From the NCBI GenBank assembly GCA_964106645.2, contig OZ067039.1: a stretch of 64,000 nucleotides of DNA. One strand, 5' to 3'. The notes beneath the pieces were generated by a model, which did not search any database, was not told the origin of the DNA, and worked only from the letters and a program-made list of their open reading frames with translations. Origin of the DNA: Podarcis pityusensis. Taxonomy: Eukaryota. Position numbers and translations under genes: made by a program. Positions 3,872-29,864 of this stretch are shown here, piece by piece (position 1 is the stretch's first letter; each line of letters opens with the position of its first letter).

Positions 3872-4008
3872 TAGGCTTCCTCAACCTCGACCCTCCAGAT
3901 GTTTTGAGACTACAATTCCCATCATCCCTGACCACTGGTCCTGCTAGCTAGGGATCATGGGAGTTGTAGGCCAAAAAATATCTGGAGGGCCGAGGTTGAG
4001 GGAGCCTG
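3872..4008. mobile_element. Palindromic hAT MITE (137 bp), nested in an older MITE
   Basis: Near-whole-length inverted symmetry; TSD atctagag / aactagag. Confidence 0.85.
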
Positions 4009-6337: not shown

Positions 6338-8278
6338 TATTTTGTCTTGGCACAAGATTGCTCCTTCCGGTCTCTTGGGCTACTTGTGTGGTTTTCTTTG
6401 TTTTATAGATAAGTCTTATGATGGGGAGAGCAGGCCAGTTGTGTTGTGTACTGTGATGCATATTATACATTATAGTTAAGGGAAGCTTGCTTGTTAATTT
6501 GGTCATAATTTTGATTTTTCTGGCTTGCTGTGGCTTCCTCAGTTTTGTATTTGAAGGTACATAAATAATTCAATAATTAAATCACTGGCTTAGGAATCCT
6601 GGTATAATGTACCTTTTAAAAACAGAGAAATAACTGAAATCCTGGTGATTGGCTTCATGCAAATGATAGAGACCCACATTTTATTGAGTAGTGAAGGGAT
6701 TAATAGTGAAAAACGGCTTCATATTGTGGCCCTGCAGTGCAGTTGTTTAACCAGCAGTTTCTCTGGTCTGAGCAGAGACAATAGCTGATAGGACCTGGGA
6801 GCTGTGAATTTCACTGTTGAATGAATTGATTAGCTTAGCATTGTGGAATTACTGGTTTATTTGCATAGGAATATATTTTGAAGTGCATGGAGGGAGGCAT
6901 AGGATTTTTCACCAGGAAGAGGGGACTCAAATTTGAATCATTTGGGGAATTTAGTTGTGTCAGTCATCGTTCCCTTTGTGTGGGACTCCACATATGCTAG
7001 TGAGTTTACATGGCAATTGGCTACATTTAAAATATTTTCAACAAAGAAGGATGGTTTCCCAAAGCAGCTGCCAGTTGTCCAATTTAGTGAGTGCAGTCTG
7101 TTTTAATAGGGTGATCTTGTGTGGGTGGTTGTTAGAACTGCATGTCTTAAAATCCAAGAGGCTTGTTCTTGCATCCATAGGGCTAGCTGGTGTTTTTAAG
7201 CTATATGGGCATTATCTTTGGTGAGAATTTGATAGTATGGAAGAGTGATTGGAGGACAATAATGGTAAAGAGGGTGCAGTTGCATAGATATTCAGTGTTA
7301 ATCTGTTAACAGTTTATACTAATTGTTTTGAGCAACATCCTGGAAGTTGAGCTGCAGTTGACCTTTCTTACACTTTGCTTTTTGAAATACTGTTGGCACT
7401 CTAAATGGGCAAGAGTCATTCATCTTGTAGCCATAGCAGGCATTTTTGTCTTACTTATTTTCTGTGTATTCAGTAGTGTCAGTGAAGCACTCATATTTAA
7501 TCAAGTTACTGCAGACTTTAGTTTTGTTAGTTAGTTCACTTGCATATAAAGTTCTCTGAATAAACGTTGCTTACTTTATATGTGGCTTGTACCTAAAACA
7601 AATGGCTCTCATACTCAGTGTTAGAGACTCAAATATATAAGCTAATTCTCAAATGGCACCTTAAACTTGCGTTATGGTTGCCACAATAGAATGTCTAGGT
7701 GCCTTTTTTGCATTGAAGTTTATTATTATTAATTCATTTTTGTACCGCTTTGTATTTTAAAGAACAAATATCTCTTTCCTTGAATTTGTGCACAGAATCC
7801 CTTGTTAGTGTGTAGTAAGAGCCAAGAATGTCCCCCAAAATTTCCTCAGTTATGAATTTACTGGATGGACTTGCAGAGCTGTAAGGAAAGGTTAATGAGA
7901 TAGTCTAGGTAAAGAATGGGCCCGCATTTTGTTCATTCAGTGTCATAAGGCAGTCTAGTAAGGCTAAAACCTGTCATTCTTCTTTTAAGAACAAGGTCCA
8001 CATTAAATGGCATAACAGAGCTTCACTTGCAGTTTCTGTCACAGGTGAAGGTTTGTCTCTTTGGAAATATTTGCTGGTGAAAGAGCAAGATAATCTTTTG
8101 CTAGGTGTGGGACTTCCTTGTCTATGAATGTCACAACTTCTGAAGAGGAACAAGGGCCGACATCTTGCTGCAAAATAGCCCCAGTCTTACTAATATTTGT
8201 GGTGCAGTCTGTGTGAGAAGGTGTTTAGCAGAATGGCTGCTTCCTGTGGCAATCCATTGGAGTGCCCAGTACATATGG

Positions 8279-8414
8279 CAGGCATAGGCAAACTCGGCCC
8301 TCCAGATGTTTTGAGACTACAATTCCCATCATCTCTGACCACTGGTCCTGTTAGCTAGGGATGATGGGAGTTGTAGTCCCAAAACATCTGGAGGGCTGAG
8401 TTTGCCTATGCCTG
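8279..8414. mobile_element. Palindromic hAT MITE (136 bp)
   Basis: TIR CAGGCATAGGCAAACTC; perfect 8-bp TSD ACATATGG; interior nearly identical to 3872-4008. Confidence 0.92.
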
Positions 8415-9274
8415 ACATATGGCATATGACAACTTAGTCTGCTCTCTGCAGGATGTGAGGAGAGGGCGCTTTATGCTAGAGTGAGTTCTTGTAGCATTAT
8501 AGGACTGATACTTTGTATGTGTTCAACAAATGTATCTGTGGGGCTTTCTAAGCATCTACAGTATGTCATGCTTGTGATAAAGTGTCTGGACATTGCTGAG
8601 CTGGTATGGTAGCATGGACATTCTCATTATTCAGAGAGCAAAGCTGTCAGTTCTTGCAGTCCTAAATCTGTGAAGGAAGAAAATGTCATTGATTGGGTGG
8701 ATTTAAAACCTTTTAGACTGTGTAGGCTGTACTAGCTTTGTAGGGTAGACCGAAGTGTGAAGGAGGTCCTGGGCTGTAGAGATGCAAAGTCAGGTTGGTT
8801 AGTGTTGGACCATAATCAAACCCCCCACTATCAAAGTCCTTCTAGCATAACAAAGTCACATTCCCCTCCCCCAAGGCTCACTCATGATAACTATCCATCT
8901 TGTAAAGATTGAGTCCATGCACCCTTATCAAGTGCATTAGTGATTTCAAGCAATCATTAACACCACCATATCTGGCGGAAATAGGGGAAAATAGAGTTGG
9001 ATGTCTGCATACTGGTGGCAGCTTACTCAGTTTCTAGACAGCTTCTCCCATTAGTTCCATGTTGAGACAAGATGTGGAACTTTTATAACTCCTCTGACCC
9101 GGTTATTGTAACTGATAATACATTGCCCTAAACTGTCAAATGTTGCTGTGGTGCTACTACTGTAGTTTAATGGTGGTACCATAACCATTTTTTTCACTTG
9201 GAAAAATGCAGCAGTGGTGTCTTACTGCTTATTGAATACTATTTGTCTAGAATTTATGGTGGTCTGACAAAAAT

Positions 9275-9448
9275 GGGAAACATAGGAAGCTGCCTTACAG
9301 AGTCAGATCACTGGTCCATCTACCTTAATTTGGCAGTGGCTCTCCAGGGTTTTAGAGAGGGAGTTTTCCCCAGCCCCCTAGCCAAAGTTAATAGGGACTA
9401 ATCCTGGGACCTTCTGCATGGATAGCAGATGTTCTGCCACTGAGCTGT
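9275..9448 (-). mobile_element. Degenerate tRNA-derived SINE with CR1-like tail
   Basis: cctgggaccttctgcatg...gttctgccactgagct (rc tRNA head) and aacataggaagctgcctta tail. Confidence 0.55.
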
Positions 9449-9759
9449 AATTGGCCATGGAAAACTGCTTCTTTTGATTGATTGTTCACTCACAATGAAC
9501 TCAGCCGAAATGAAGAATCTGCCCAATGAAAAGTTATTTGAAATCCAAGCTTTTGTGTATCATAGTTTAACTTTTGCCTCTTTTTGTGGTACCAGCACAT
9601 TCGTCAGAATGTACATGCTGCCAGGTTTGTATTATACTCTTTATAGTGATTCTGCAATTACAAAGAGATTTCTGTCAAATCTGTGCATCTTACACTTCTA
9701 TAGAAGATAATTATATTAAGCAGGGTTTTGTTTGCAAATATCATGACTTGAAATGACTA

Positions 9760-10001
9760 CAGTGGTACCTCGGGTTAAGAACTTAATTCGTTCTGGAGGT
9801 CCGTTTTTAACCTGAAACTGTTCTTAACCTGAGGTACCACTTTAGTTAATGGGACCTCCCACTGCCGCTTCACTGCTACCGCACAATTTCTGTTCTCATC
9901 CTGAAGCAAAGGTCTTAACCCGAGGTACTATTTCTGGGTTAGTGGAGTCTGTAACCTGAAGCGTCTGTAACCCGAAGCGTCTGTAACCCTAGGTACCACT
10001 G
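9760..10001. mobile_element. Tigger/pogo-like MITE
   Basis: TA|CAGTGGTACCTCGGGTTA ... TAACCCTAGGTACCACTG|TA; internal 16-bp repeats gtctgtaacc.gaagc. Confidence 0.9.
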
Positions 10002-12430
10002 TATTGTTATCAAACTGTTTCCTGTATAAAAGAGTTCTGTATACTGTGCTCTAAAATACACTTAAGCATCTTTTTAAAAGTTTGAATATTAGAGCAGCTC
10101 AGCTATAAAATTCCCTTATTTTTTTAATTTCTTGAGGAAGCAATAATCTTGCCACCTAATTTACCCAATGACTGTGATACCAGTAGGAAAACAGCACATA
10201 AACGAGCCTCTTAAGGAAGCAATTAAAATACTCTTGCCCTTAATTTGAAGGAGCTGCTATTGTAGAATGCTATTCAAAAAGAGCATTGAAAATAAGTATT
10301 GCAGGTGTGATTGCTTACCCTGTTCCCACTTAGCCTGTTGGAAGCTGGCACCTGCAATAGTCATGGCCAGCTGGGACGGGATAAAAAAAGTCATATCCAT
10401 GAGCACAGTGGGTACGGTTTCCCTTTGTGCCTGCCAGGAGAGAGAGTATGAGTGCAGTTAGATACAGAGGCAGTTGGAATGTTCCTCTGTTTTATCTCAA
10501 GATCTGTGGTTTGTGTGTATGTACTCCTCCCTCCCATATTTTTTTGGTGGGGAGTGAGAGGAGTATGGGGGCTGGAGGTCACTTTTACTTGCTGCACATG
10601 ACCAAATTAAAAGGTTGCTCTAAATTACCATTCAGAAATTAACTTTTGTGGTCGCAGTAATGGCACACTCTTGGAGAATATTAATAATTCAGCCATTCTA
10701 GTAGTAGGTAGAACTCCTGAGAAGTATCTTTGTATGTTTTAGAGAGAAGTTCTACATACTTTCGGAAGAAGCATTAAAAAAGCACGTGATTAAAAATGAT
10801 ACTGACTGGAAGAAGTTTTAATGCTGTCTTTAGCCAAACAGTTGTTGTGAAGTAAGTTAGGTTGAGAGGGGAAAACATCTGGCCCAGTCATTGATGACAT
10901 GGAATTCTCTTTCAATATTTGTTATATGAGGGGGAAACATCTGGCAGAACCATTATTGGGACAATAAAGTACTGCAAACACTCCATGTGTGACCAGCATC
11001 AAAACTGGAGGGTGCTCAGGTGCTGTAGGCTATCCTTAGCATAATCTATCTTGTCCCAGTTTGTCCTCCCAGTGGTACTTTTATGTGACGCATGGCTACA
11101 TAATGAGAAAATTCAATAGGACTGCTGCAGTACAAAAATGCTGCCTCTTCTTTACAGATAACTGATTTGTACAGTATTGAAAGTTCTCCCTATAGTTAGT
11201 CACAGGTGTTGTGCAAACGAAAAATATATTTCCTTGTTTGATTGCAGTGCCTTCTTTCTAACTGGAATGGCCATTGAAAGGCTTAGCTTAAACTGAGTGT
11301 CAAGTCTGTTGGCCTCCGTATATCCTGTAGTGCCTAGAGGTGACAGGTTTCCTTCATTTGCTGGCGGAAGGGCAGTGAAGCAGTATATCTGGTTCATTGT
11401 ATCTCCCTCCCCATGGCTCTGTGTGTCTAACAGTATCACTTAAGGCTTACTGGTGATTAAAAGGCAGAGCACAGGAGCTGGGTCACCAGCTGCTTCACTG
11501 GACTGATAAATGGGCATTACTTTTCTCTTGTTCATTCTTAATCCACCTAGTACTTTCTCCACACTGACAGTGGGGCACTTGGTCTTGTGGATCAGGCAAG
11601 GATTTTGCTACTTATCCAATTTGCACAGTTATCAGGAGGGTGGGGGCTATGATAGGGAATGTCCCGTTCTCTCCAGGTACAGATAAGTCGCTGAGAGAAA
11701 AAGCAGCTGTGACCTTTTATTTTTGTAATATACACCTGTATATATGTTAGCCTTCTTAGTAAGTTCCCAAAAGTTACTAGCCTGCATTTTCTTTTTATTT
11801 GTCTGTTTTACCTCAAATGGGGAATTTCCCTAAAAATCAGGCCGGTGAATTCCCCCTCTCCCCAAGCTGGTCTGGAAATGCAGCAGGTTGGTGGAGGAGG
11901 CATGGATTGCTACCTGTCCGCTTGATTTCAAATTGGACATGCAAGAAGGGGCTTTGCTTCCTCTATGTCCAGCTTAGAAGCACAGATGGCTGGTGGATTG
12001 CTCCATTCCTCCATATCTTGAGTGTTGTGCTTCTGCTTCTCTTCCTTTGTGGCCTGGGCGGAAGCCAAGTGGACTTGTGAAAGATGGACAGATTGCTCTG
12101 CTCCTCCTTTGCCAGACTACACACGGGTGTGGAGACAAGATTCCACGTTCTCTCTCTGGTCGCCAGTGGCATCCAGATGAGTGGTTAAATGCAAGACTGG
12201 TGTATATGTTTTATCGCAGTAGTAATTGTTGGAATAAATCTTTTCATATTTATTTTCAAATCTTAGAGCCAAGTTCAGCAGTTTGGCTTTTGTTGCAGGT
12301 TGGGTCAGGTTAAAACTGTAGCATCTTTATGGCTAACTGTTTCATTGTGTTTTTAAATGTTTGCTTGCAGGTAAATTTACTCAAATCAAAGTTTGGACAT
12401 AATAGCTACCATAGCTTAACCTCTCAACCT

Positions 12431-12431
<1 letters not shown>

Positions 12432-12464
<33 letters not shown>

Positions 12465-12468
12465 TGTG
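12432..12468. repeat. (CT)n(GT)n microsatellite
   Basis: Direct reading. Confidence 0.95.
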
Positions 12469-12789
12469 TTAAAATGAGCTAGCAGCACTGCTGTTTTAAA
12501 ACAAATTGCACAAGCCTATACTTGAATTGCAGCATGCGTGAATGTCATATCACTTGATTATAAACTGAATCTTAATGCACTGTATTGCCTAACACAAAAT
12601 AAGAAGGGATTGTGAGCCATCTTTTGATCTGTATATGTTTAAAATTGATATTGCACCAGCTGTATTTGAAATTCGCCGGGCACCAGTCACAATTTGTGAC
12701 TGCCAACCGGCATTTTGCAACTGGATGGAGATGTCCGGATGCCATCCTTGGTGCCTATCATCTCCCCCTGCCTGGTTGCAGTCAGCTGG

Positions 12790-13050
12790 TCTGCCAGGCA
12801 CAGCGGCAGCAAAAGAGGCACATCTTTTGCTACCACGCTATGCCGCCAAACGCCTGATTTGCCCGGCAGCGCAGCAGCAAAAGATGCATCTTTTGCAGCC
12901 ATGCTATCCTGCGTACCACCTGATTCACTTGGCAGCAAGTATTTTTTTTTCTGCTGCTGTTCTGCCGGGTGAATCAGGTGTTTGGCAGGGTAGCGCGAGA
13001 TGTGTCTTTTGCTGCTGCGCTACCCTGCAGACCATCTGATTCGCCCGGGA
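12790..13050. repeat. Composite repeat of ~65-70 bp units in direct and inverted orientation
   Basis: Palindromic gcaaaagatgcatcttttgc core and cctgatt.gcccggcag motif recur, and recur inverted (ctgccgggtgaatcagg). Confidence 0.7.
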
Positions 13051-15138
13051 GATTAATTTTTTTCCTGCAAGGCTGCTTGGTTTCCACCCTCCCCCTCAAA
13101 AGGCACCTAGACATTTTGTTTTGGAGCCCACATGGCTCCCAGTTTCTAATACTGTGTACCAGGCTATTGCAAATGAATCAAAAAAGGCAGGGAGCAGTGT
13201 TAGAAACTGAGATATGAAAGCTAGGAGCTAAATAGCACCTTAAGTCTAGACTACCACTACATAATGCTTTATGGGGCTGCCCTTGAAGGATGTGATTTTC
13301 TTTGAGTTTTTTTCTCCCCTCATCATCTTTTTTCTGCTCTTTTTGTGGAAATGAGCGCTTGATGTCTACTTAACACTGGTGGACTAATTTTCAGAATAAA
13401 TAATAACTTGTACTATAATGTGCATGATTTCTGCTTTTATTGTTTTTTCCTACTTCTCATAAAATGGCAAAATCAAAGAGTTGCTAGGTTCCTTTACAGT
13501 TCAGTGGCTTTTAGCTCCATCTGTAAGAAAAACTTGAAATAATGAAATCAGTTTATAATTATTGTCTGAGTAAACTATTTTTAATACACCAGACATGACC
13601 ATTCAATAGTAAATCAAAGTATGCATAATGTATTTTATGTTCCTGAATTAACAAAATGACTTTCAATAGCAGTCATATTTCCCTAGTGTCGGAGGTTGAA
13701 TAATATGGAGATCAGTGATGTGACTCACTATTGGTGTAAAGAGAGGTGCAAAGCCAAAGCTCCCACATTTTCCAGACAGTGTCTTGCTTTGCGAGCCTCT
13801 TAAGAAACTTGAGGCAATCAGGTTGCTGCATTTGAGGCAACTAAAACAAAAGTGATGGAGGTTCTTTACTTTCCTGAAATGGGCTCGTTTTGATTTTTTT
13901 ACATATGCTTTCGCAGGAGCAGTTCTTAACAATCTCCCATCTGCTTCTGTTCCAGTTATAGTGGATGCAGCCCAAAGAAAGTGCTATCTTGTTTAGAAGG
14001 AGTGTGTTAGTTGCTGGTAACCGGCATAGTAAATTTATAATCTTAAACTTTCAGGGGCTCAGCTAGTGAAGGTGTGTCCTTCAAGCAGTCACTTGAGGCC
14101 TGTTGAATGTTACTATTGTGTGTCTTTTGTTGACTTTTTTAAAAACAGACAGACAAACAAAATATATTGGCTATGTTTGCCAGCATCTGTATTTTCCCAT
14201 CACCTTACACGTTTTTCCTAGGCAGGACCAGCCATCCCTTCAAGTAAAATGTAGCAGGTGCTTTGGCAGCAGATTCCAAAATCAGTGTAACTATAAAAGG
14301 GATGTCATCAAAGTTCCTGGAGATTGACCTCTGGTGCTGACTGGCTTAACTGGATGATTGAGGTCACACTTTTCAGTGTTCAAGTGTAAGAACTCCCCTA
14401 ACAGAACTACTTTGCAGATGTTTTAAAATAGGTGGCTGTCATTTAAAAAGTGCTAGGTCCTGGTTGGAATATTCTGTTCAAGAAAGGGGGGGGAAAACAC
14501 AACAGGGATATTCTGTGGGCTGACATTTGAAGTTGATGTTTGCTTAAAGGTGCTGATAAGCTTGGGCTCTCTGTGCTCTGTTGCCAAAGGACCTCTGGCT
14601 GTATGTCAACCTCGCCCATATTCTTTTGAACTTCCTAAGGCAGGCTTTCAAAGGTTTTATTACCTTTCACAAATGCTACTTGTGTAGCCACATATTACCA
14701 AGAGCAGAAGTTTAAATGTATTTAGACTGTGTTTTTGTCACCCTGAACATGTTGCTTAATCCTTTTCCAAAAGTGGTTTCTGTCTGTTCAATAAATCCTA
14801 GGTACGGTGTGCATACACATACATGTTCACTTTTATATTAAAATACCTGCATGCTTTCTGCAGAATAAAAGCTGTGGCCTTCAGGAGTGTAGAACTTGGT
14901 TGTGTAGCACATGTGCACCATGTACAGAAAGCCGTGGGTTAAATTCCAGGCATCTGTAGTTAAAAGGATCTTGGATTGCAGAGTTGTGAAAGCCTTTGCC
15001 TTAACCTCTGTTTTTTGTGGCTTTATTTGTACACATCCTTGAAGGTCAACTTGGAATACTTGTGTAACCTTAATGCAACCTCTAACCCCCCCCCCCCCCC
15101 GTTGTCGGAGCCATTATCTCTGGAATAAAAGTGTGCAT

Positions 15139-16071
15139 TAGGGCTGGGCAGTATATCAATATAATTGTTCACATCATGATAATTTTATATTATTTGAGCT
15201 GGCAATATATTGCAAATCACAACATTTGTAAAGACTAGGTGATATCTGGTTTTCAACACTGCGATAGCTCACCAGCTAAACATTGCAATGTCATAGTGAA
15301 TACAAATAATCTGGGACTGCCACCAGGCCTGCTAGGAGGCAGAAGCAGCAGTGGCAGAAACAGCTCACCCTGACCGTGATACGTATCGGCAGAAGTGGCA
15401 ACAACCTGCAAGGCCTTGCGCTGGTGGCACAATCAATGGTGGCCAGCGAGTACTTGTGGGGGCAGTAGCAGCGGCCTGCGAGGCCTCGTGGTGGTGACAA
15501 AAAGTGGTGACAGTAACGGCAGCAACCTACAAAGCCTCACAGCAGCGATGGGAAATGACAGCAGTACTGGTGGCAGCCTGCGAGGGAGTGATGGCATTAA
15601 CTGCACCCTGCAAGACTTTACAGCAATGGGAGGTGGCGGCCAGTAAGGCCATGCAGTGGCAGCGGCAAAAAGTAGCAGCAGTAATGGAGGCGACCTGCGA
15701 GGACTTGTGGTAGTGATATTGTGGATTCTGCCGCCGCCGGGCTGCTGGCAATCTGGCAGTCCCAGATTATTTTTATACACTATGACTCATTACCATACTC
15801 TGGATTGTCCTGAATACTACAATTTGGTAGGCAAGTCCAAAACCAAAAGTCTCATTTGGATGCCTTTTGGCTTGCCTGTTGATGAAAGTGACCATGAGGT
15901 GATTGATAATATCAGTTTTAGACCTTTAAGTAGTAACAGTTGCTAGGACATTGTCCTGTTCAGCTCTGCATGGTTCCTTCTTTATTTCAGATATCTTGAT
16001 ATATTGATAATATTGTGACGTTTAGCTGGTGATATATCACGATATTGAAAACCAGTTATCGTTCAGCCATA
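15139..16071. mobile_element. Non-autonomous hAT (Ac-like TAGGGCTG ends) with internal inverted and tandem repeats
   Basis: TAGGGCTGGGC start, GTTCAGCCATA end; flanks gtgtgcat / gtgtgcta; long subterminal inverted repeats (~15235-15290 versus ~16011-16060). Confidence 0.7.
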
Positions 16072-16636
16072 GTGTGCTATTGCAAGCTGACCACATGGAT
16101 TTTGCTCACCTGCTTGCTAATCTTTCTCGTGGCAGAAAGCTGGTCAGGTGGAAAAGATCCACATGATCGGTCTGATCGTATGGATATTTTTTTCCAGTGG
16201 CATGGGAATGCATTATAGGGATGTTGCTCACTGTACTTAGAGAGTATTCTGGATATCCTTTGGCTTTGAAGGAGTAAGGATTGGGATTATTTCTGGCTGG
16301 GCAACAACTCTAGACCCTGCTGGTCGTCCTTGCTTAATTGTCCCTTTTGAGTTTGCAGCTGCTTGCATGAGCCAGAAAGCAAGCAGCAGTTTGTTCTGAG
16401 AATTTCTTTTGCCTGTCTTTGCAAAATTTAAGAGTTTATTTCATGTTTGTTATCTTGGGAACATTAAAGCTGCCTCACTGACAAACTGCTCTGATGCAGT
16501 TTTTTGTGTTTAGCCTGGTTGAATAGTATCCATCTCAAATGTTAGTGAATTTGAGGAATAGGTTGCTGATGCTGATGACACAGTATGGTTATTAAAGTTT
16601 CTTAAAAGGAGAAGGGGTGTGGATGGTTTCTTAAAA

Positions 16637-16773
16637 CAGGTGGAGAAACCAATGGTCTTCCAGATGTTGTTGGACTACATCTCCCACAATCCCCGATCAT
16701 TGGCCATGCTGGTTGGGGCTGATTCAAGTTGCAATCCAGCAACATTTGGAGGGCTGCAGGTTCTCCAACCCTG
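16637..16773. mobile_element. Older palindromic hAT MITE of a related family
   Basis: ccagatgttgttggactaca...aacatttggagggc; degenerate TSD tcttaaaa / ctttaaaa. Confidence 0.7.
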
Positions 16774-17170
16774 CTTTAAAATACATTTCAAAATATGTTA
16801 GCTTTTTCAAAGTGGAGATAAAGAAATGTTTATTTGAGCTATAACTAAATTCAGTTACTTTTGCTTGGACATAAATGCTGTTAGAAATCTTTACTCTCTT
16901 GTAAACAAACAAAACTGAGCTTTTATTATGGTTTGGGCTCATAGATAGCTCCTAAAGCTGCAGCTGGTGTATGGAGAGAGACAAGCCAAATGCTATAAAG
17001 TGCCACATGGTTTTAAACCACGATTAGCGATGTAGGCTGACTCAGCAAAAATGTGCAAGGTTCGCCCTCTATCAGTATAATGGGCTGTTTTGAAAACTTG
17101 CATTAAGCTCATTTTCATAGTTCATTGTTTGTTGCAGATAAAACGTTGCAAGCCTTACAAAAATAATGGC

Positions 17171-17285
17171 CAGAAAGATTGCTGTTTTAGTCTGCGGCAT
17201 CAAATAAAACAGACTTAAAAATTAACAAATTTGTTGTGGGATAAGCTTTCATAGAGTAAAGTCTGCTTCATCTGATGCATGAGGT
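17171..17285 (-). mobile_element. Older, degenerate Penelope-like end with a decayed hammerhead core
   Basis: Reverse complement reads gcat-CAGATGAA-gcagac...at-GAAAGCTTAT...aacaaatttgtt...gactaaaacagcaatc, the same layout as the 27 kb element. Confidence 0.55.
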
Positions 17286-17539
17286 GCTATCATAAATTGA
17301 CATGTAATTATAATAATTTGTATAATGAACGACCCAGTTAACATGATTGTATGGGCTCCTAGAGAGGAGATTGTAGCTGTTTTGCTGCTCTCTGGTCACC
17401 AGTCCAGGTGCTAAACAGGCTTGGAGCTGGCCTCAAACCATATCATTAAATATTAGCTATTTGTATACTGTCCTTGATAAGTGATGTACAGCACAGGTTC
17501 GATATATTTTTAAAAAAAGATTTTCATATTACCATCAAT

Positions 17540-19420
17540 GGTTCCCAGGGTGGCTAATGGTATTTCTGTGCATTAAGATACAATAAACATAAAGCAATAT
17601 TAAAACCATCAAATAGTGTCAAGTACTGTCAATTATAGGAATAGGGAGCTTAAAATACCAGATATATTTTTATAAATCCTGGGCAAATAAAGTTTTTGCA
17701 TGGCACTTAAAAGATAAAGAAGGAATCAAGTGGGTTTCATTGGAGGGAATTCCAAAGACACTATAACACAGCCATAAATGTTCTTTCTCTAGTTTCCATC
17801 TCCCTCTCCAATTGGTGGAAAATGTCACTAAATATTGATATATGGGTAGTAGGGACTAGGTGTTGTTTTAGATACCTGGATCCCAAGCTGTGAAGGGTTT
17901 AAAAGTGAGCACCTTGACTTGACATTGGAAGTTGATGAACAGCCAGTAAAGGTCTTTTTTATTATTATTTTTCAAAAATCATATTTCTAACTAGAGATCC
18001 TAGTTTTTCTAAAATGTAGCTGCTAGAATTCTAACTGCAGCTTGCAAAATCTGTTCAGGTCCCTCGTAACACATTGCAACAAAGTATGGATAACTGGCTA
18101 GACTGTTTGTGTCCAGGTTCATCAGAGTTCTTCCATTTCTCTCTTTAAAAACCCTGGTAATTTCCATGCTAATCTGAGGAAAGCTTGGGAGATCTTCCCC
18201 ATCTCTAGTAATTAGCCATGAGTGGTAAAGATCAAGTGAACAAAAAGTAGGTTACGTAGCCCCAAGCACCTTGTCTTGCATATTCAAGCTGCATCAACTG
18301 AAATTCATCCCACAATGCTACATCAGACAGTGCTTTTGACACATCCTCGGATTGAACTGCCATAATTGTAGCATCTAGACTCTGATGAAGGTGAAGGTAA
18401 ATGATTTTGTCTTGACAACATGTTTAGCAAACATGTTACAGCAGGCGCTGAAGGTTTTTTGAATCCTTTCATGTGGTACTAAGCCATGAGCTGCTTGGAA
18501 TATCTCTGCTGGACACCACTCCCAAGTATGTGATGGTTAGCAGAGAAGTGTTTCCTTGCTGTTATGACCACAGAGTAGGCTCAGTAGTGAACTTTTACCT
18601 GTGTTTAGTCATATTCGATGTGAGCCTTCTACCACCTGCATTCTAGTAGTCTTGCTGCCTGCTTCCTTAGCTAAGTTACTAGGTAAACCAGGGACCAGGC
18701 TCTGCCCTGTGAGAGAGAACCCTTAGGAACAATTGTGCTAACTTCCTGAGCAATTGAGACGAAGGCTTGGTGTGCTGGACATGCCAACAGGACTCCTTGA
18801 GGACTTTTTGGAAACCACTGAATTAAGTTCATTTTTGGACTGTCCTACTGGATTTGCTGCTCCTACAGAGGGTAGTAGTTGCTGCTGGCTTAAACCCAGC
18901 AGGAAGTGGTCTGAACGTGACTGGGGAGGTACTGAAAAACCCTCCACACCACAGTGCAGTTGAGAACTCTAGGTCTGTAGTGTGGTACACCATAGTAAGT
19001 CGCCCTGCCCCAGAACAATTTTGGTGCTGCATCAATACGGCAAGTGGGTGTAGCTGAGAGAGTTCCCTTCCTTCAAGAATAAATAATGAATAGTAGTTTA
19101 GTTATAATTTACCTGGTATTTAACTGGTCATCTTTTGCAGCCTGGGTGGCCAGCCTGTGGGACAGCCAGCAGTTCTTTATTGCACGCAGGAGTAGAAGAG
19201 GGTGCCTCTGGCATAAGAGTCCATCCAATATGCCTGCCACGTTGCAGTCAGAGCTCTTGCTCAGTACGCTTGAGGCAGAGTTGCAATGAGGCATGGAGGT
19301 TGGATCTGCATTGAAGGCTTTGTCATTGGGTTTGATGACAAAAGTGGTTGATGAACTGTGTTTTACTATTTGGGTGTTGAAGGCAAGAGTGGAAATTGTC
19401 CAGAACAATTAAGTGAACCT
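17540..19420 (-). mobile_element. Highly degenerate L2/CR1-group LINE (boundaries approximate)
   Basis: Tail-like segment at ~17670-17960 resembles the 33.9 kb remnant; decayed endonuclease-to-RT linker-like sequence at ~18550-19350. Confidence 0.45.
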
Positions 19421-22400
19421 GTACGTGAGCAGAGAATTAAGCCAGGTGCTTCAAAGTCAATCCAAAATCTATCAGTTTTGTATTTTTAGATTCCACTATT
19501 CATCTCCACATTCTCCAGATTTTCTGTGGGGTCCGTACAGTAAATAGGATTCCTGTTCATTTGAATTTGCAGGCTGTGCTAGCTTGTCAGAAAATAAAGG
19601 TTTACTGTGGATGAATGCATCCGAACAGTGTTGTTTATCATTTCAGGGAGGGGGGAGGATAACTGGTAAAAACAAATTGCTAAAATTTCAAATCTATTTT
19701 CAATTCTTAATTGTAGTATGTATTCTTATTTTTGCTTTGCTTTACATACTCCTAAACTGATTGACCTCAAGACTACCTAATCAATTTGAGAAATACTTGC
19801 TACATTCTAATTTTATTTTTTGTATACTGCCCAGGGAATGTGATTGAAGGGAGGTCTACTCTACCATAATAAATAAAGCAACATTGTAACGCGGGACTTC
19901 CACACAGTTTCCTCATTTCAAAGGCATCTCATCTCCAAACTGGGTTTTCTTAGAAGTTGGGGGGGAAAGCAATGCTTGTGAAAATCAGCACACAGAGACC
20001 ATCCTAATGCATAGTTATAGTCAGTTTGGACATCATGGTCAGCCATAGTTGAGAATGCTTAACTACAGTCTAGCATGGTTTCTGAAGATTATGTGTGGGC
20101 TACCAAACTAGAATTAGAAGCCATGGGTTGAGGTGGGTTTGCCATGGTGTGGCTTGCAGAGAAGCAGCTCTGGGGTAGCCAGGTTCAGATTCTCCTGTTT
20201 GGCCATGAACCATGCTTTCTGATCTTGAGCTGGTTGTGGTATCCTCACAGAATTGTTATGAGTGTAAAGTAGAGATGAGGGTGGAGTGAACATAATGCTT
20301 AATGCAGAGTAGATAGAAAATGCAAGTACAAAAGTAGCTCTGAAATTATTTTACGTATTATTGGGCTACTTTGTGTAAATCTATCGAGAGGAGTTTATGT
20401 AATAAAATCACAAAATGTAACAATAAAAAACATAAGCAAGGCACTAAAAATTGCAGCAACAGCAGTTGGACATCTGAAAGCTGCAGACCATGAAACATTA
20501 AAAATTGTGTGAAATTTTAAAAATGATAAAACTCATCTAAAAACAGAAAGAAAAGAGGCCATTTATCCTGGGTTTCTGACACTCTTCAATGGAACATTTA
20601 ACAGTAGAATCCAATGCAGGTCTACTCAGATGTTTAAGATTGCAGCCTAAGGCTCACAGACCTCAAACCCCAAATCATGGGGTTAGCCAACCAGAATTAG
20701 CAAGTTCAAAGCATATTTTGATTCCAAACAACCAGGCATAATGAACCACCTCAGTCTTTAAGTTCAGCTAGGGACCCTGCTTTCTGTCCTATTATTGTGA
20801 GAAGACAGGTGGCAAGTATACGAGACAGGGCTTTCTAAGTGGTGCCACTAAAGCTCTGAAACACTTTCTTACATCAGATTTCTTTTTGGCAGGATTATAA
20901 AGCTGGAAGGTGGATATATAAAAATACTGGCACTTGAGAGGTTAACTTTGCAGTGATGGTTGTGTTTTGTCAACTATCCATGTTGGATTATAATAGCTTT
21001 ATATTTCATGGTATATTTATATTATATATTTGTACCAAAAACTATTGGTTGCTACACTAACTAAGTTTTGTTGCTATTGATTTAGAATTTTCCTTTTTAG
21101 GTCTAGGACACATACTAGTTAGTACTTGAGCTACAGGCACAGAGGATCTCTTTTGCATGCCAAAAGAATGCAACTTTCTCAGGCTTTGCTGCTTTCTTCT
21201 GCTTTACTTTTTTGTTGTTAATCCAGTTAACCAGTGTTTAAAATTAGAAACATATATTATTGAACCGTATAGGTTTCTACACTGCTTATATCATTCAGTT
21301 ATTTGAGTGAGTTGTGTCTTGTGTTGTTAATTGCTTACACCTAAACCATTTTAGGATGCTTCAGAGCTATGTTTTGCTCATTTAAATGCCCTAATGGCAA
21401 CTGTTCAAAAAGAATGTTGTAATAATGCATCCAGGGGTTTCATCTCTGTTTCTTTCCAGACATGGCTGGCCTTTGGACGGCCCTGTTATGGGATTTTAAA
21501 AATCTGTCTGTGACTAATGTAAGTTATGCTTTTCTGCTTGAGTTCTTTATTTTTGTACAGTTTTAAGGTACCCTTCCTGAATGGGAACTGTTTGTCTTTG
21601 CGTATTAAGTTTTCACTTTCCAGCAGTAAGTAGGATTGTGTCTGGTATGGAATGCTATCTATCTGAAGAAAATGAATCTGCATCAAAACTGAGTCCCTCC
21701 GCTACAGGATCTGTGCTTGGACAAGCAGCTAAGGCACTGCTACTACATTGCAAAAGGGAGAGTGGTCACTCGGGCTCTCTGAGGCTCTGAAGGGAACTAC
21801 AAGCATTTTAAATTAGATTCTGGAATTCGGCTGCCAACCCCTCTGCGCTTTTTGCTCTCCTTGTCACGGTGGCTGCTGCAGAACTTGTTGCTCCCATTTG
21901 CATGGGCCAAGAAGTAGAACAGATCACCCTGTATTGCTGGATTGCAGCCTGTCACTCATATGCCGAGTGCACCATTCTCTGCAGAGTTGGGCACAGGCCA
22001 GTTACCTTGGCAGAAGGGGATGAAAGATATCTGACAAGAGGGAGGAGATTGGCTTTCCTTTGCCGTGGGACAGAGATAGGTGGCCTCTTTGGGTTGTCAT
22101 GGGGGGTTGAGGGTGGGAATGTAGGCATTATTTATAGCACTAAATATAGTTGACTCTGCTTTCATAGAACAAGATTTGGGTCATGTGACCATTTTCCTTC
22201 TTCCTTGGCTGCTCGTCTGTGCTGAGATCATGTATCTGAATAGGTAATAATTAACTGTTAACGAGCTTTTCATTAGAGGCCTGACTGTGTATGCACAGGG
22301 AGGCAGAGCTAAGGCTCTGTGGAAAAACCTGCTTTCTCTCTCAGGACAAGGTTGCAATGCTTTTAGGCTGATGCCCCCTCTTTGAATGCTTGCTAGCGTT

Positions 22401-23428
22401 CATTCCCTGAATAACTTGTGTGGCAGTTACTCCCATACTGCAACACTGTTTTGAGGTACAACTTCTCGACAGTGAAGCTTCTTGGCTTAAGAGAGATGTT
22501 GCTTGTATGAGGTGCTATTCATTTTGAGTATAAAGAAAGTCTGACCCACATACCTTTCAATTACTTTTTTGCTGCTGACTTGTTAAGCTGCTGTAGCTAT
22601 TGGGTGAACTTGAGCATAGCTCTGTGAAGTTGCCCAGGTGAGGATAGTTGTTAGAAGCCGGCATCTTGTGTTCATGGAGGTGCATTGTGACAGCTGAAAA
22701 ATATGTAGCTTTTCCCAAGAAATGTCATACAGTCCCTGCCTATGGTCATGATAGACAGGCACAGGTGGAAGGACTAACGTGGCATTCAGCTGGGTTGCAG
22801 CTCTCTTCCGGAAGTGACCAAAACCAGCCCACTCTTGCATTCCCTCCTCCCTCTTTTCTATGTTAACAGCTTCTCTTACCTTGAGTGTGTGCTTCCAGAT
22901 TAGACTACAGTGGCAAATGCAGGGTTCTGATACGGCATATAGCCTATAGATATAGAGAGCTGCTAATTGATTAACTTGCCTGTTTTTGGAAAGGCAATCA
23001 ACCTTTGGATTTCCCACTGAATTGTTGTTTTCCAGTTTAATATGCTGCAAGTGAGGAGGTACATTTGTCAAAAAGCTGTTATTTCTTTCTCTGTCTTTCC
23101 GTCTCTAGCCTGATTTGAAAAGACACAGTGACCTAGCCTAGCTGATTTTAAAAAGGTGTGTGTGGGGAGGTGCCCTTTGAATTAGAATGGGAGTGAAATC
23201 CTTTGAGCATATGACCTTGAGCATGTAAATTATTTGCCTTCCCTTGCTTTTAGCTCAAAGTGTGTGTGTGCGTGTGTCTGTTCATGCATGTGTGCTAAAT
23301 ATGCATTTGCTGCTAACATCAGACTGGTTTTTATAAGCGCTCCTCTGTATCTTTCCTGAACTGGTGTTTTTTTAGTAGAACTGCCTTGTAAGTGCAGGAC
23401 CGAAAGGGCTGGTAGTGCATTTACAGTA

Positions 23429-23444
23429 TGCTGCCATCTGGTGA
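23429..23444 (-). promoter_or_regulatory. CTCF-like motif (rc TCACCAGATGGCAGCA)
   Basis: Motif match only. Confidence 0.4.
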
Positions 23445-24372
23445 TAAAAGGTCTATAGATGCTTTTTGTGAGCTATTTTGATGGCAAGTTAGAACTTTAG
23501 AATAATTCACAATAGAGGTGGGCAGGCTTCAGACTTTCAGAATCTATTCTGTTAACTGGATTCCTGAGAATCCACCACCTGGAGCCAGGTGCAGCATACT
23601 GGCTGAGGTGTAGCCAGAGGCAAAAAGATGGCTAAGGGAGAGCCTGCTGCCTACTGCATTGGAATGATTTGCATTTACCACTAAACATCTACATGGGGAG
23701 TTACTACAAATCCTGGTATGGGGTGGCAGAGAAGCTTTTTTTTTTCTTTTTCTTTTTTTACAATTGTTAACCATTGCAAATCGGAAATCCATTACATTAC
23801 ATTCATGAGAATTCTAGCACTGGGAATGCTATCAATATGGCTTTCACAACATCTAAAGCAAACAGCTATGGCAAAAAAAATTACACTACACAGCAGTTGC
23901 AGGATACTAATACCCTGTAAGGTGTTTTACTGGATGCCATTATGTCAGCTTTTAAAAAGTTTTCTTTTAAGGTTATATTTGTTTAAAGAACTGTGATTTA
24001 CAGAACAGTTCAGACCACTGATCTGCTATACTGGAGGGGTTTGTATGGAGTGGAAATATCTATCCACCTTTGCATTGCCTGGCTCCAGTGCAACTGGACA
24101 GTAGTCACAAGCTATACTGCAGCGCTAGCCAGTGGAAACCCCCCCAAAGGGGTGATTAGAAGCTGGCACAGGATCTGCTGGATCTTGAATAGGCTCTGCT
24201 GTTGCCCTGTCACCGAAACGGGCCCAATCGAGGCCTCTTTGCTACATCAGCTTAACCCCTCCCTTTCTGCCCTAGCTGGTGTGAGCAAGCAGCAGAGCTA
24301 TGGAGGTGGCTGTGCTACTCCATCAAGCCCCGCTGCTGTTCGCAGGAGTGGGGTGGAGTGGGGTTGGGATAG

Positions 24373-24514
24373 TAGAATCATAGAATTGTAGAGTTTAAAG
24401 AGACCACAAGGGTCATCTAGTCCAACCACCTGCAATGCAGTAATCTTTTTGTCCAAACATGGGACTCGAACTCATGACCTTAAGATTGAGTCTCATGCTC
24501 TACCGACTGAGCTA
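24373..24514 (-). mobile_element. tRNA-Lys-derived SINE with CR1-type 3' tail (Squam2-like)
   Basis: rc TAGCTCAGTCGGTAGAGCATGAGACTC...GAGTTCGAGTCCCA, followed by a tail ending ...TTCTATGATTCT. Confidence 0.8.
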
Positions 24515-25947
24515 TAGTAATGCAGCCTTAACAATCAGTCAAAGGTGAGAGAGCTCCTGCCCCCTCTCGCTTACAGTCCAAAATATGCAATACAAATGGA
24601 AGAAGTGATGGAGAGGGAACAGGAAAGCAAGCAAACTCAGGTATCAGTTCTTTATAATGTTACGTAGTTTTTACCATGAGAAACTGGGGGAGAAACAGTT
24701 GAAGGAAGAGGAGAAACCGAATAGAATTGGTCTTCTAGCAGAATTGGTGGGAGTTCAGCTGCTTCCCTTTTCTTCCTCTGCTGCAGCCTGATGGAATGGT
24801 TTCTGCCAGATGATAGTTGTTTTTCCTTGAAGCTTAAGGGAGGAGCTACTGCTTCCACTCATCTGCCTAATTTTACTCCTTTGCCTTATGCTCTAATCTC
24901 TCATTTCATCAACAGCACATCATGATTTGAGAATTAAATTAAAAGTGAAACTAGAAGCATAGTAAAAAAAAAATCCACTTTGGATTTTGGGTGCGTGTGT
25001 GTTTGTTTACAATCAAGTGGTGTATAAATATAATGAAATGAAATGGAGTCCACCATTGCACAAAGCTTCTACTATAGGAGAGCATCGGCGGAAAAGATGG
25101 ACCTGAACCATCTCTTCCTTGGTCGGGATATGGAAACATGAAATTATTGGACCAGTAGAAAAGTAGTAAAGATAAAGTATTCGACCAGTAGTAAAGAAGT
25201 CCTTAAGTTTTTAGGTGCTTTGTTATAAACAAGTACAATATAAATGAACATAAACTATAATATATAGGTAGTGGTGGGGAACCAGTTTTCCCCTACTTTC
25301 ATTTGACGATACAGCTGTTGCAGACCAATGTTGGTCTTCAGTCAGCCCCTCTGGGAATCGCTTACTTTTATGCATTGTGGCTCGCAGTGAGCTGTAGGAT
25401 TCGGGGAGCATGAAGGGAGGGAGAGAGAGAGATGATGGGGGGGCAGAGATGGAAATGGGTGGAGTCAAAATGAATGGATTGATGCAGGTGCGCATATTTC
25501 CACCCTGTGCTGTTGGAAGAGGTAAAGTGCGAAGCTTGATCCAGATATAAAAATGGAGGAAATGGGAACACAAATAAAGGATGTTAACCTGCAGCATTGC
25601 AAATTTATTCTGGCTCTACTCATTGCTGGCATGTGGCCCTAAACATGCTCCCCCTGAGGGAATGTAAGTGGAGACAAATTGTTACAGCTCTTTGTACTCT
25701 TTTTAGGTAATAGAATCCCACATAATGGCTCACACAGACATTTGCATCACTTGATAGCTTAACACTTTGATTATCTACACTGATTTAAAACAATATTAAA
25801 AGTTCTGTCTGTACGCTTGTATATGCAATTGCTCATTCACACATGCAAATTGTTCTCTGCTTCAGAAATCAGGTGATGAAATCAAGTGCACGAACTGGTT
25901 ATGAAAGTTATGAGTTCTCCAGCAATAATGTGCTTTTTTCTCTAGTG

Positions 25948-26085
25948 CAGAATGTTTCCCATCCTTGAGTCTCCAGCTGTTTTTGGATTACAACTCCCAT
26001 CATCCCTAGTTAGCGAGACCAGTGGTCAGGGATGATGGGAAATATAGTCAAAAAACAGCTTGAGATCCAAGGTTGGGAAACACTG
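25948..26085. mobile_element. Palindromic hAT MITE abutting a second hAT element
   Basis: Same core (cccatcatccct...agggatgatggg), inverted relative to 8279; CAG..CTG ends. Confidence 0.75.
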
Positions 26086-26092
26086 GCTAGAG

Positions 26093-26323
26093 CAGGGGTC
26101 AACAACTTTTTCAGCAGGGGGCCGGTCCACTGTCCCTCAGACCTTGTGGGGGGCCGGACTATATTTTGAAGAAAAAAATGAACGAATTCCTATGCCCCAC
26201 AAATAACCCAGAGATGCATTTTAAATAAAAACACACATTCTACTCATGTAAAAACATGCTGTTTCCCGGACTGTCTGTGGGCTGGATTTAGAAAGCAATT
26301 GGGCCTTAGTTTGCCTACCCATG
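26093..26323. mobile_element. Short non-autonomous hAT-Charlie element (cargo-free relative of 43784-44532)
   Basis: CAGGGGTC start; TSD ggctagag / ggctacag; first ~80 bp and last ~45 bp align with the 43784 element. Confidence 0.85.
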
Positions 26324-26970
26324 GGCTACAGCATGAATTCCTAGTGTGGTGCCTGATAGGCTTTTACCACACTAAGTGGATTTGGTTCTTGGAATCTCAG
26401 CAGAGAGTTGCATGCCAAACAGGAGTTGGTATACTATTGTTCATATACAGTACTAATCACTGGATTTTGCTTATTGCTAGTGTTATCATGCAACATTTAC
26501 ATAACCATACAAAATTGGTGAATGCAATATCATTCCCTAAATTAAAAAGTAAGTCCTAATTAAAAGTTGCTAGGCTTTTGATGTGGTAGAAGTTCCTTGA
26601 CTTTCTTATTTACTTGGGTTCTTTTCAAATTCAAACCTGTTCAGAGGGGTGAATGGCAGTCTTTTTCTACCGTTGTAGGTTGTTGTAGTTTTACGTTTAG
26701 CCCAGTGGTTTTCAAACTATGGCTTTCCTCTCCCCTCCCTTGGGGGGAAGTTCAGAATGGATGGAAGGGGAAAGAAAGCTCTAGGGAGGAATAGGTTCTT
26801 GTGACTATCACAGCCTTTATCTCACTAAGCCAAGTGATATTAAAGATTGTATGCACTTTAGCAGAAGACTGTTTAATTCATATGATTTTTGAGGGTGAAT
26901 GGCTGATTGCTGTCATTGCCCCATAAGCTCAGTCTGCTTTTGGGAAGAAGTGCTACATTGTTCTTGACAG

Positions 26971-27189
26971 TTACAGATAGGTAGCCGTGTTGGTCTGCCA
27001 TAGTCAAAATAAAAAAAATCCTTCCAGTAGCACCTTTAAGACCAACTAAGTTAGTTCTTGGTATGAGCTTTCGTGTGCAAGCACACTTCTTCAGATTCAG
27101 TGTATCTGAAGAAGTGTGCTTGCACACGAAAGCTCATACCAAGAACTAACTTAGTTGGTCTTAAAGGTGCTACTGGAAGGATTTTTTTT
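26971..27189. mobile_element. Penelope-like retroelement remnant (inverted terminal fragments)
   Basis: 14-bp TSD ATTGTTCTTGACAG (26957-26970 and 27190-27203); perfect inverted arms 27008-27096 and 27104-27192; minus-strand end GACCAACACGGCTACCTATCTGTAA resembles recalled reptile Penelope termini. Confidence 0.85.
27102..27139 (+). ncRNA. Minimal type I hammerhead ribozyme motif (Penelope-associated)
   Basis: GTAT-CTGAAGA-A-GTGTGC-TT-GCACAC-GAA-AGCT-C-ATAC: stem I GTAT/ATAC, core CUGANGA and GAA, stem II, palindromic AGCU in place of stem III. Confidence 0.7.
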
Positions 27190-29286
27190 ATTGTTCTTGA
27201 CAGACTAGGAAAACTTGCCCATATTTTTTAACGCTTCCTAGAAAGTGATCCTCAGCAGTGTTGTTGGAAGTGGCCACCCTTGGAAACCAACCATTGGAAC
27301 GTTTTTCCATCCACCCAGCAAAGTTTGAATTTTTGCTGCCTCAGCTTGTTGTGAATAAATCCCTACAAGTTACTGTATCATTTAGGATCATCCAGAGTCT
27401 CGTGTGGCAGTGTCCCGTTCCATTTTTGTGAAATAGTTATGCAGAATGACTGGCAGGTTCTGAGTGCCTTCTGCTTTTTCTCGTTTTGAACAGGGACTGT
27501 TAGCCTTTTCATTGTTAAGGGAAATTAGCTGTTCCTCTAGGTCACTTTGTGGCATGTTAATTGGGGGTGTGCTCCTTTGTTAACCCTCCGGGTTCTGAGT
27601 TCTTTGGGATCAGAAAGCAGATTTTCCTTCAATCATGAACTCCTTTTCTGTAATCCATGAGGTGAATTGGTTTGTTCTGTACTTTAATCCTCAAAGATAT
27701 TCACATAGTTTAGAAACAGGCGCACGTGGCAGGAAGACAGTATTGACAGTGGAAATGTTAATGAACTTTAATTAGTATAACTGTTTCTTCATGTGTAGAG
27801 TAGCATTTTCCTAGCTGCCTATGAAAATCCACATAAACATGTCATGGAAGGAAAAGCTATATATGCTGAATTTGTATAAAACCAAGCCACGAGAATTACT
27901 ACAGTGTCAAGTTTTATGTTGTAAACAACTTTTAAATGAACAGTAACACTTCAGTGAAAAAATGAGCAACTGTAGCAGTGTTGGTCTGTAAGAAACAAGC
28001 CCTCCAAAATCCATAGTTGGGCAGTACTTTTATTGCTCCAGTGAAGGTATTGTTCAGCTGTGGGTTTTAGCATTCTTTCTCCCTCTACACTAGATTCTCC
28101 CAGCAGCAGTACTGCATATAGCTGTTCCTGATCTGTAACCAGAGACTTTTGTATGGTACAAAGTCAAAATAGCAATTTATTTTTCATGCACTGGTCTTTT
28201 CTGATTTAGTTTATTTGTTGCAGGTTAACATTGGCGGGACTAGCCCATGTGTACATGGGGGTAGGGGTTGCTGAAATCTGCTATGTGGACATTTTAATCA
28301 CCCTACACAGACACCCCGGCAAAAATACCCCCTTTATGGTTGGATGTGCTGAATAGCAATAGAGCTGGCTTTAATTTGAGTGCTTTGAAGGGTATCAGGA
28401 TACTGAACAAAAAGCCAGTGCCAGCCTCCCCACTTGCATGCCCTTCTCAAATTTGCCTTCCCTGCTTCCAGTTCCAGGGCCATAGCCAATCACTAAGAAA
28501 CACAGGAGTGATGTTCCTCAGCTATGGTCTCATTTCATGCATACAATAATAGAAGCATTTCTGCTCAACAATGTAATTTTTAGTAGCGTTAAGTATCTAT
28601 GCTAATTCAGATCTTTTAGCTGACACCCTGCTTTTGGAAAGCCTGGAAGTGAGTTCCTTTTTTCACTTAAAATGCCTTCTGTCCATGAGATGCATATTGT
28701 GGATAATGTTGGCAGTCTATACACTATCCCTTCATTAGCACATGTTGCATACTAGGATTCTTACAGCAATGGTGATTTTGTGCTTCTAGCAAAGTTCAGG
28801 AAAGACTCTGGTATCATTGTGCCTAAAATCTTTCTCAGCATTGGTTGCTGATCCACAAAAAAGTGTTGGGCCACAGTAAGCTTCTTACCAACCTTTTTTC
28901 CCCCCCTGTTGGATGAACAAAACAAAACTGTATGGTCCCTGTATAAGGATGTATTTCTGAAGACCCATACACAACCCAAATACTGGGAAAACCATAGTAA
29001 GGGAATGTAATAGAAGCTGGCAGGAGAGTTTGGGAGAGTACTCTGCAACTTGCTGTTTTCTGGCTTCTACGCAGCTAGCTTTTGCCCTGCTTTGGTGGGG
29101 AAGCCAGCTTATTTTGAGATTTTGATTTATAGGTAGTTGCTTCTGATACGTTTTGTTGCTGCTGCTGTTGTATTCAGCAACTTTAGGGGATTTAAATTCT
29201 TGGTCTCGTGGATTATTTTACTAGTGAAAGAAAGGTATTCTCCCAATTTGGCATTGTCCGGCTACTGGGATGCTCTGTCACACCCT

Positions 29287-29300
29287 CCTCTAGGGGGCAG
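29287..29300 (+). promoter_or_regulatory. CTCF-like motif CCTCTAGGGGGCAG
   Basis: Close match to the CTCF core consensus; motif match only. Confidence 0.4.
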
Positions 29301-29864
29301 GCTCCTCTGAAGAAAGAATTGAGAGAAGATAGGAAGCACTGCCTACTCCTGCCCATTCCTGGGTAGTAGGCAGTACCTCCTACTTCCTCCCAAGAGTTGG
29401 CATTTTCCTTCCTTTGCAGTGAATGGACACAGCAGGTTCACAGCCTGGCTTTGGGAGCCAGTTCTAGCTGGTAATAACTCCTCTTCATGCCAGGCTTGAA
29501 AACATAGGTATTGCCTATGGGTGGGTGAGAACCATTTGAAGATAAATGCTGTCCATTTACTCTCAGATGGAACACTGAGCGTTTTCTGGGTAGAGAGTGC
29601 TTAGAGCAATCTATTAAGAAGGGGGGGGGGATCTCAGTAGAGTCATGGCTCTACATATTGAATTTGAATATCATGTTTCAATCTACTAATCTTCCCAGTA
29701 GTTATGGAAGAGAGACTTCATTTTCTTAGAGACTGACCTGGTCGTTCCTTGGAAGGTAGATGAATGTTAAGTGTGATTGCATGGAGTGATACAATAGGGA
29801 CTAAAAACCGCCTCAGTGACCAACTTAGCATATTAATTTTTTGGCTTTTCTTCCCTCTCACTAG

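Follow-up and report, generated by a model that had tools for sequence, protein, structure and literature searches.

A Penelope-type minimal hammerhead motif in a head-to-head insertion within a LARP1-family intron of Podarcis pityusensis, predicted to be masked by its own antisense arm

The window analysed here, a stretch of 64,000 nucleotides from Podarcis pityusensis, contains a 219-bp head-to-head insertion (26971-27189) flanked by a 14-bp target duplication. Taken together, the evidence makes it very probable that this insertion is a stub of a Penelope-like element (PLE) in intron 1 of a LARP1-family gene, carrying the standard minimal hammerhead of its family, which is predicted to be fully paired to the other half of the stub and is likely to be an inert passenger. 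In LARP1 pre-mRNA the insertion would form a 90-bp hairpin, which would be edited by ADAR and would leave with the intron. An earlier note on this DNA, made from the letters alone, had located the motif correctly, but its coordinates did not take in the remainder of the insertion, the 37-nt tail or the target duplication (Table 1).

Table 1. Features of the insertion and its surroundings (positions in the window)
Feature	Position	Strand	Remarks
Intron 1 of LARP1-family host gene	1..29864	+	exon 2 starts at 29865
Left target-site duplication	26957..26970	+	14 bp, counting microhomology; mode in the family, 12 bp
PLE tail, about 37 nt, start of element ORF	26971..27007	-	ATG 27001-26999, about 10 codons; from comparison with L081 and L082
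Tailed pLTR arm	26971..27096	-	ends 2 nt into stem I of its own hammerhead
Mirror hammerhead copy	27061..27098	-	core intact; stem I 5' strand reads GAAT
Head-to-head junction	27095..27101	.	arms overlap by 1 nt (T27096); initiator predicted here, with A27099 as predicted +1
Tail-less pLTR arm, sense to host gene	27097..27189	+	
Minimal type I hammerhead motif	27102..27139	+	letters and predicted fold; features as in PMC4209133; cut predicted after C27135
Stem I 5' strand, GTAT	27102..27105	+	
Core, CTGAAGA	27106..27112	+	
Extra A	27113	+	
Stem II 5' strand, GTGTGC	27114..27119	+	TT between the two strands
Stem II 3' strand, GCACAC	27122..27127	+	
GAA	27128..27130	+	
Palindromic AGCT	27131..27134	+	
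C17	27135	+	
Stem I 3' strand, ATAC	27136..27139	+	
Adenosines 27149, 27153, 27164, 27165	27149..27165	+	equivalents of likely A-to-I edited family positions, from family-wide reads of a related species; downstream of ribozyme
Right target-site duplication	27190..27203	+	

Every letter of the motif given in the earlier note is present at its place, and the conserved hammerhead core is complete (C3-U4-G5-A6-N7-G8-A9, G12-A13-A14, A15.1-U16.1 and H17). The motif also has the traits that PMC4209133 describes for PLE hammerheads, namely an extra nucleotide lying between 9 and 10.1 (here an A), a G10.1-C11.1 pair and a palindromic 15.2-16.2 stretch (AGCU). Stem II had been described as GTGTGC paired to GCACAC; these letters are correct, but six pairs would leave a loop of 2 nt, and in the predicted fold of the isolated motif stem II has 5 bp closed by a 4-nt CUUG loop, beside a stem I of 4 bp. 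Helix I, which has 4-5 bp in PLE hammerheads, and helix II are predicted to form in isolation, and neither in the full hairpin. The motif alone folds no better than its shuffles (z = -0.12). The covariance-model search suggested in the earlier note returned no Rfam hammerhead family at its gathering score or at E ≤ 10, that is, the motif falls under no Rfam hammerhead family; the miRNA-family matches in Rfam are generic hairpin matches below their own gathering scores.

The 38-nt core has 4,321 exact copies in the genome and none in a reversed-pattern control, so the motif is not a chance occurrence; 3,848 of these copies have an intact GTAT, 1,946 are preceded by the 17 native upstream letters, and a looser core pattern gives 8,671 matches compared with 4 in the control. 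Two units of 3,010 bp outside the window (L081 and L082) hold an ORF of about 900 amino acids between two repeat copies, with a reverse transcriptase domain (RVT_1, E 1.8e-12), a CX4CxxC linker and a GIY-YIG domain (E 2.2e-4, just under the curated cut-off). A single ORF with reverse transcriptase and C-terminal GIY-YIG is the organization of EN+ PLEs, and the layout of the copies agrees with that class as well, the pLTRs being direct or inverted, the 30-40-bp tail optional and the target site duplicated; the hammerhead lies in the pLTR, as in other PLEs. A CX2-5CxxC linker before GIY-YIG is the criterion for the Neptune/Nematis type (PMC8557442). To judge from its CX4CxxC motif, the element is of that type. 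Known vertebrate members of the Neptune/Nematis-type PLEs are Neptune, and this background together with the linker motif points to 'Neptune-type' over Nematis. We conclude that the motif belongs to a young Neptune-type PLE as its standard minimal hammerhead, and that the ribozyme type is already known.

An older subfamily (L226-L228; 82-87% protein identity) retains the ribozyme core while its flanks diverge, with N7 free and a compensatory change from C-G to U-A in stem II; stem I is kept in two of four older-subfamily copies (L227 and L228, not L217 and L226). The earlier note had made its claim depend on conservation of core and pairing across genomic copies, and both are found, with a covariation that is thin (one compensatory stem II pair, four older-subfamily copies). 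We propose that conservation of the ribozyme serves the element's own cycle rather than the host locus. Several other families share the core and have different stems II (1,154 matches compared with 711 in the control), and an abundant repeat (L193-L221) combines a CUGAUGA...GAAA core and a GGCU/AGCC stem with no evident stems I and III; its downstream letters resemble what we take to be the start of an RTE-type LINE endonuclease.

The host gene lies on the plus strand and encodes La and LARP1_HEAT domains; we take it to be LARP1 rather than LARP1B. Its exon 1 belongs to a CpG island that lies just upstream of the window, whereas its exon 2 lies downstream of the insertion, which places the insertion in intron 1. 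Host orientation and the full-length element copies together bear out the view that a Penelope-type minimal hammerhead is located on the host's sense strand. Strand skew begins at the CpG island upstream of the window (window 1-62000, L188) and amounts to about +0.1 to +0.2 along the gene, as expected under germline transcription. Beyond the insertion, the 64-kb window contains no further copy of the repeat, nor a second sense hammerhead for a cis dimer. Other repeats in intron 1 include a partial tRNA match on the minus strand (24459-24514; Rfam RF00005, 35.3 bits), likely a tRNA-derived SINE head, and two MITE-like inverted repeats, one at 25953-26082 (55 nt at 84%), which would also form a hairpin, and one at 29319-29393 (29 nt at 79%).

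The arms of the insertion form an inverted repeat of 92 nt at 99% complementarity, and the full hairpin folds at z = -22.8, with none of 200 shuffles as good. The 37-nt tail is found on the minus arm only. In longer copies the native letters before the core are TTCAGTGTAT, and the plus arm in the window retains them; the minus arm stops after AT, and the GA that precedes it is the complement of the plus arm's first letters. The mirror copy had been reported to have a mismatched stem I (GAAT versus ATAC). These letters are as reported, but the mismatch is not a mutation, because the first two letters belong to the other arm and mark the insertion junction. Junction letters vary from locus to locus.

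We surveyed 55 loci, in which 43 distinct pairs were detected. Short head-to-head junctions number 449 in the genome, and neighbouring pairs among the first 100 cores comprise 23 head-to-head, 1 tail-to-tail and 4 direct arrangements. Exactly one arm is tailed in 42 of the 43 pairs, the exception being a three-arm insertion, and the same holds for all 32 pairs that were not chosen by a tailed query. The target duplication is 12-16 bp in 39 of 43 pairs, with a mode of 12. Arms were measured in 18 pairs, of which 12 have a longer tail-less arm, 5 a longer tailed arm and 1 two equal arms; the junctions show an overlap of 1-4 nt (8 pairs), a blunt join (1), a spacer of 1-10 nt (7) or a large spacer (2); arm lengths form a continuum up to 2.4 kb. 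A longer tail-less arm means that each arm holds sequence absent from the other, implying that both were copied from RNA and that neither is the other's fold-back copy. Within pairs the arms differ at 14 of 6,730 nt (0.2%), compared with about 0.4-1.2% between most loci, which weakly suggests a single RNA template. Nearly half of the first 100 cores (47) belong to copies beginning 0-9 nt upstream of the core, with modes at 6 and 4 nt. Longer copies have a TATA-like box 30 nt upstream of the predicted start and an initiator-like TTCAGT at it; box, initiator and insertion ends together would define the transcription start of the element, and the plus arm in the window reaches 2-3 nt beyond it.

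These pair statistics favour twin priming on both nicked strands over fold-back. The element protein would nick both target strands about 12 bp apart. Each nick would prime a cDNA with the element RNA as template, one starting at the tail site and the other about 37 nt further upstream; both cDNAs would extend to the 5' end of the RNA, a few bases before stem I, and the two cDNA ends would be joined head to head. In L1 twin priming, both target nicks prime reverse transcription, resulting in an inversion within one target duplication; there the two cDNAs copy different RNA segments, whereas here the same segment would be copied from two fixed starts to give an inverted duplication. The chances are about even that a broader reading is right, in which twin priming is obligatory for PLE insertion. 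A dimer of the protein would cut the target strands 12 bp apart and start reverse transcription at two fixed internal sites of one RNA, leaving exactly one tail per two-armed insertion, and run-off at the 5' end of the RNA would produce short hairpin stubs in large numbers, each bringing a ribozyme that is already masked and a substrate for ADAR. In the same reading, a native hairpin spanning stem I would keep the ribozyme silent in read-through transcripts, making it foldable only in RNA from the element's own start. That hairpin is formed by the native TTCAG-TGTAT-CTGAA (L022-type pLTR; window 27096-27110), which spans stem I and core. The predicted stem I probability is 0.39 in RNA from the predicted start compared with 0.003 in read-through RNA, and the hairpin is a possible built-in off-switch.

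The main alternative, unlikely on present counts, keeps the same element identity and has the palindrome arise from one cDNA that folds back and primes itself, the origin proposed in PMC3846280. Around stem I the native letters already make a small hairpin, the arms within a pair are near-identical, and some junctions are perfect fold-backs, with 3 of the 50 loci listed turning exactly on the stem I hairpin. However, fold-back does not account for the fixed tail-less end, for the single tail per pair, or for the 12 of 18 pairs in which the tail-less arm reaches further 5' than the tailed one. It could still hold for single short loci such as the insertion in the window. Other accounts of the copy ends were set aside. 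Copies do not begin at the ribozyme cut, their starts lying about 35 nt upstream of it; a spliced exon attached at the CAG that precedes stem I is an unlikely source of the 5' cluster, there being no shared upstream exon letters; and 'AAT' before the core is not a family hallmark, as most copies in a position-ordered sample keep GTAT, the impression having arisen because the query itself carried AAT. The recurring GTG at 5' ends is due to microhomology with the other arm.

The layout of the insertion is in itself already published (PMC3846280). The EN+ PLE insertions described in Arkhipova 2013 (PMC3846280) and Craig 2021 (PMC8557442), with an inverted 5'-truncated pLTR, a one-sided 30-40-bp tail and a target site duplication, share with ours the head-to-head layout, the first codons within the tail, and the TATA and initiator elements in the pLTR; the stub in the window stands at the shortest end of that series and has no ORF body. 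In both papers the palindromes are attributed to self-priming, and endonuclease resolution is given as the source of the tail, whereas the present counts favour two primed cDNAs. Two primed cDNAs fit what is described for the Poseidon element PAc of Anolis carolinensis (Frangieh 2024, PMC11167929), in which two internal reverse transcription starts bound the tail and both target strands are cut and extended. PAc is likewise a lizard PLE with a pLTR hammerhead and no RNA-seq ends at the cut site; it differs in its linker, which here is CX2-5CxxC (Neptune/Nematis type), and in its ORF, which starts at stem II in PAc and about 90 nt downstream of the core here, and inverted pairs are not treated in the accessible part of that paper. 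The hammerheads of PMC4209133 share core, extra nucleotide, G10.1-C11.1, palindromic 15.2-16.2, short helix I and mostly single dispersed copies with those described here, and that work includes motifs in turtle and snakes and dual motifs on opposite strands; the opposite copies are 11 nt apart here compared with about 100-700 bp there, helix II is 5 bp here, and family and genome are different. The one-tail-per-pair rule is not stated in the titles and abstract openings of the papers found on PLE twin priming, lizard hammerheads and editing; subscription papers and supplements may hold it.

In the direction of LARP1 transcription the complementary arm is made first, and the sequestration of the ribozyme that had been suggested is predicted to be full, with stem probabilities of 0.00. 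The predicted energy is -182.7 kcal/mol for the full hairpin compared with -120.8 kcal/mol when the ribozyme is forced, a cost of about 62 kcal/mol. In short contexts without the antisense arm, the predicted probabilities are 0.15-0.39 for stem I and 0.36-0.49 for stem II. Considering that head-to-head geometry puts the antisense arm before the sense hammerhead on either strand, masking is a by-product that needs no selection. The earlier note had gone further and suggested masking as a possible reason for tolerance of the insertion. On this explanation a free ribozyme would cut the LARP1 pre-mRNA, the antisense arm would prevent this and so allow the insertion to persist, and editing or unwinding by helicases could turn the ribozyme on. 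Complete predicted masking, the stems that form in short contexts once the arm is removed, and the likely editing of the family (PMC5625713) agree with this explanation, which we nevertheless consider very improbable, as the unmasked copies elsewhere in the genome argue against it.

We examined 72 loci without an exact partner on part of chromosome C1, 53 of which have no antisense cover of the ribozyme. Flank skew, a weak proxy for transcription direction (SE 0.007), was taken in the orientation of the ribozyme and is positive in 25, negative in 27 and zero in 1 of the 53 unmasked copies (sign test p 0.89), indicating no depletion of copies in the inferred sense orientation. The window itself has a skew of +0.10 to +0.17, and strong cases would therefore be expected to stand out in this comparison; among unmasked loci with an intact stem I, 4 lie at or above +0.07 and 4 below -0.07. 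Intronic placement was confirmed for one of the four most positively skewed solo loci, the Pfam scan covering 148 stop-free stretches, a subset, on the ribozyme strand of four skewed solo loci and identifying a host exon in one. At this locus (L132, G000:C1:10947533), a sense copy with intact stem I lies 450 nt after one BRF1 exon and about 7 kb before the next. The upstream exon matches the TFIIB repeat and the yeast TFIIIB 70-kDa subunit (BRF1), and the later exons presumably belong to BRF1, judging by their motifs. There is no antisense copy in 40 kb, and the stems of the ribozyme have predicted probabilities of 0.86-0.99, making L132 a good natural test substrate for an unmasked hammerhead. 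The copy is preceded by a short duplicated piece of the core. Published assays speak against the tolerance explanation as well: cleavage in vitro by a single minimal hammerhead was not detectable (PMC4209133), and the hammerhead of the Anolis PLE cut only with the element's protein (PMC11167929). The window, as noted, offers no partner for a cis dimer.

RNA evidence came from four runs of a related species placed on the full-length copy L081, where many copies are pooled. Coverage of short pLTR pieces is 200-440-fold in both directions and that of the ORF 0-18-fold. Loose read ends occur at the 5' cluster and at both the tail and the tail-less end, and none of the four runs has a pile of molecule ends at the ribozyme cut site, which, in fragmented libraries, is a weak test against cutting. 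One stranded run has 13 molecule ends at L081:4906, 19 nt upstream of the core, which may come from a single locus. In two stranded runs, four A>G sites in the contexts UAG, UAA, AAG and AAC appear in 10-39% of sense-strand reads compared with 0-4% of antisense reads among the rows listed (Fisher p ≤ 3e-11 each), and G occurs at these positions in 1, 1, 1 and 0 of 204 genomic copies. Strand-skewed variants other than A>G are also present (places 4803, 4846 and 4850), implying that a few highly expressed loci could mimic editing, and two single-cell runs have the same A>G changes on both read directions with no strand split. ADAR A-to-I editing of the family is the likely explanation of the four changes, which come from reads of a related species. 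The Penelope repeat is massively edited in lizard, with over 40 K sites (Porath 2017, PMC5625713); Penelope repeats are common to that work and ours, and its accessible part draws no link to head-to-head stubs or the ribozyme. Editing had been suggested as a way to unmask the ribozyme. Editing of the family is likely, but the edited positions observed are not in the ribozyme, whose A-rich core would be expected to lose activity through A-to-I changes.

Some copies are arranged head to tail. One insertion (L045, G000:C1:6051941-6052126) has three hammerhead units of 74 nt each, and in L077 and L078 units of 179-183 nt reach into the ORF; repeated template jumps are the likely origin of these repeats, which could form a hammerhead dimer and resemble nascent retrozyme arrays. 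A different hammerhead-like family (L234 and L235, G000:C1:21398713 and 21424700) occurs as 77-bp tandem pairs. The window insertion is not a non-LTR retrozyme, which requires tandem head-to-tail units, for it has one sense unit, an inverted partner and a locus-specific junction. It is hardly credible, and already largely refuted, that the 219-bp palindrome represents a non-autonomous element in its own right, comparable to a SINE or a retrozyme, which would be transcribed, cut by its ribozymes and copied as a unit: short palindromes are numerous (the 449 junctions) and retrozymes are described as PLE derivatives in bioRxiv 10.64898/2026.07.22.740005, but junction letters differ between loci, arm lengths are continuous and the ends of copies show no clustering where the ribozyme would cut.

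For LARP1, the insertion is likely of no consequence, being one among thousands of equivalent copies. A young and abundant PLE with near-identical copies yields clean insertion-end statistics, namely one tail per pair, a 12-bp stagger and run-off at the predicted start. These statistics, the only results here of wider use, concern the second and still unresolved half of the PLE cycle. Paired compared with solo copies in introns form a natural experiment that could reveal whether host transcripts are ever cut by minimal hammerheads.
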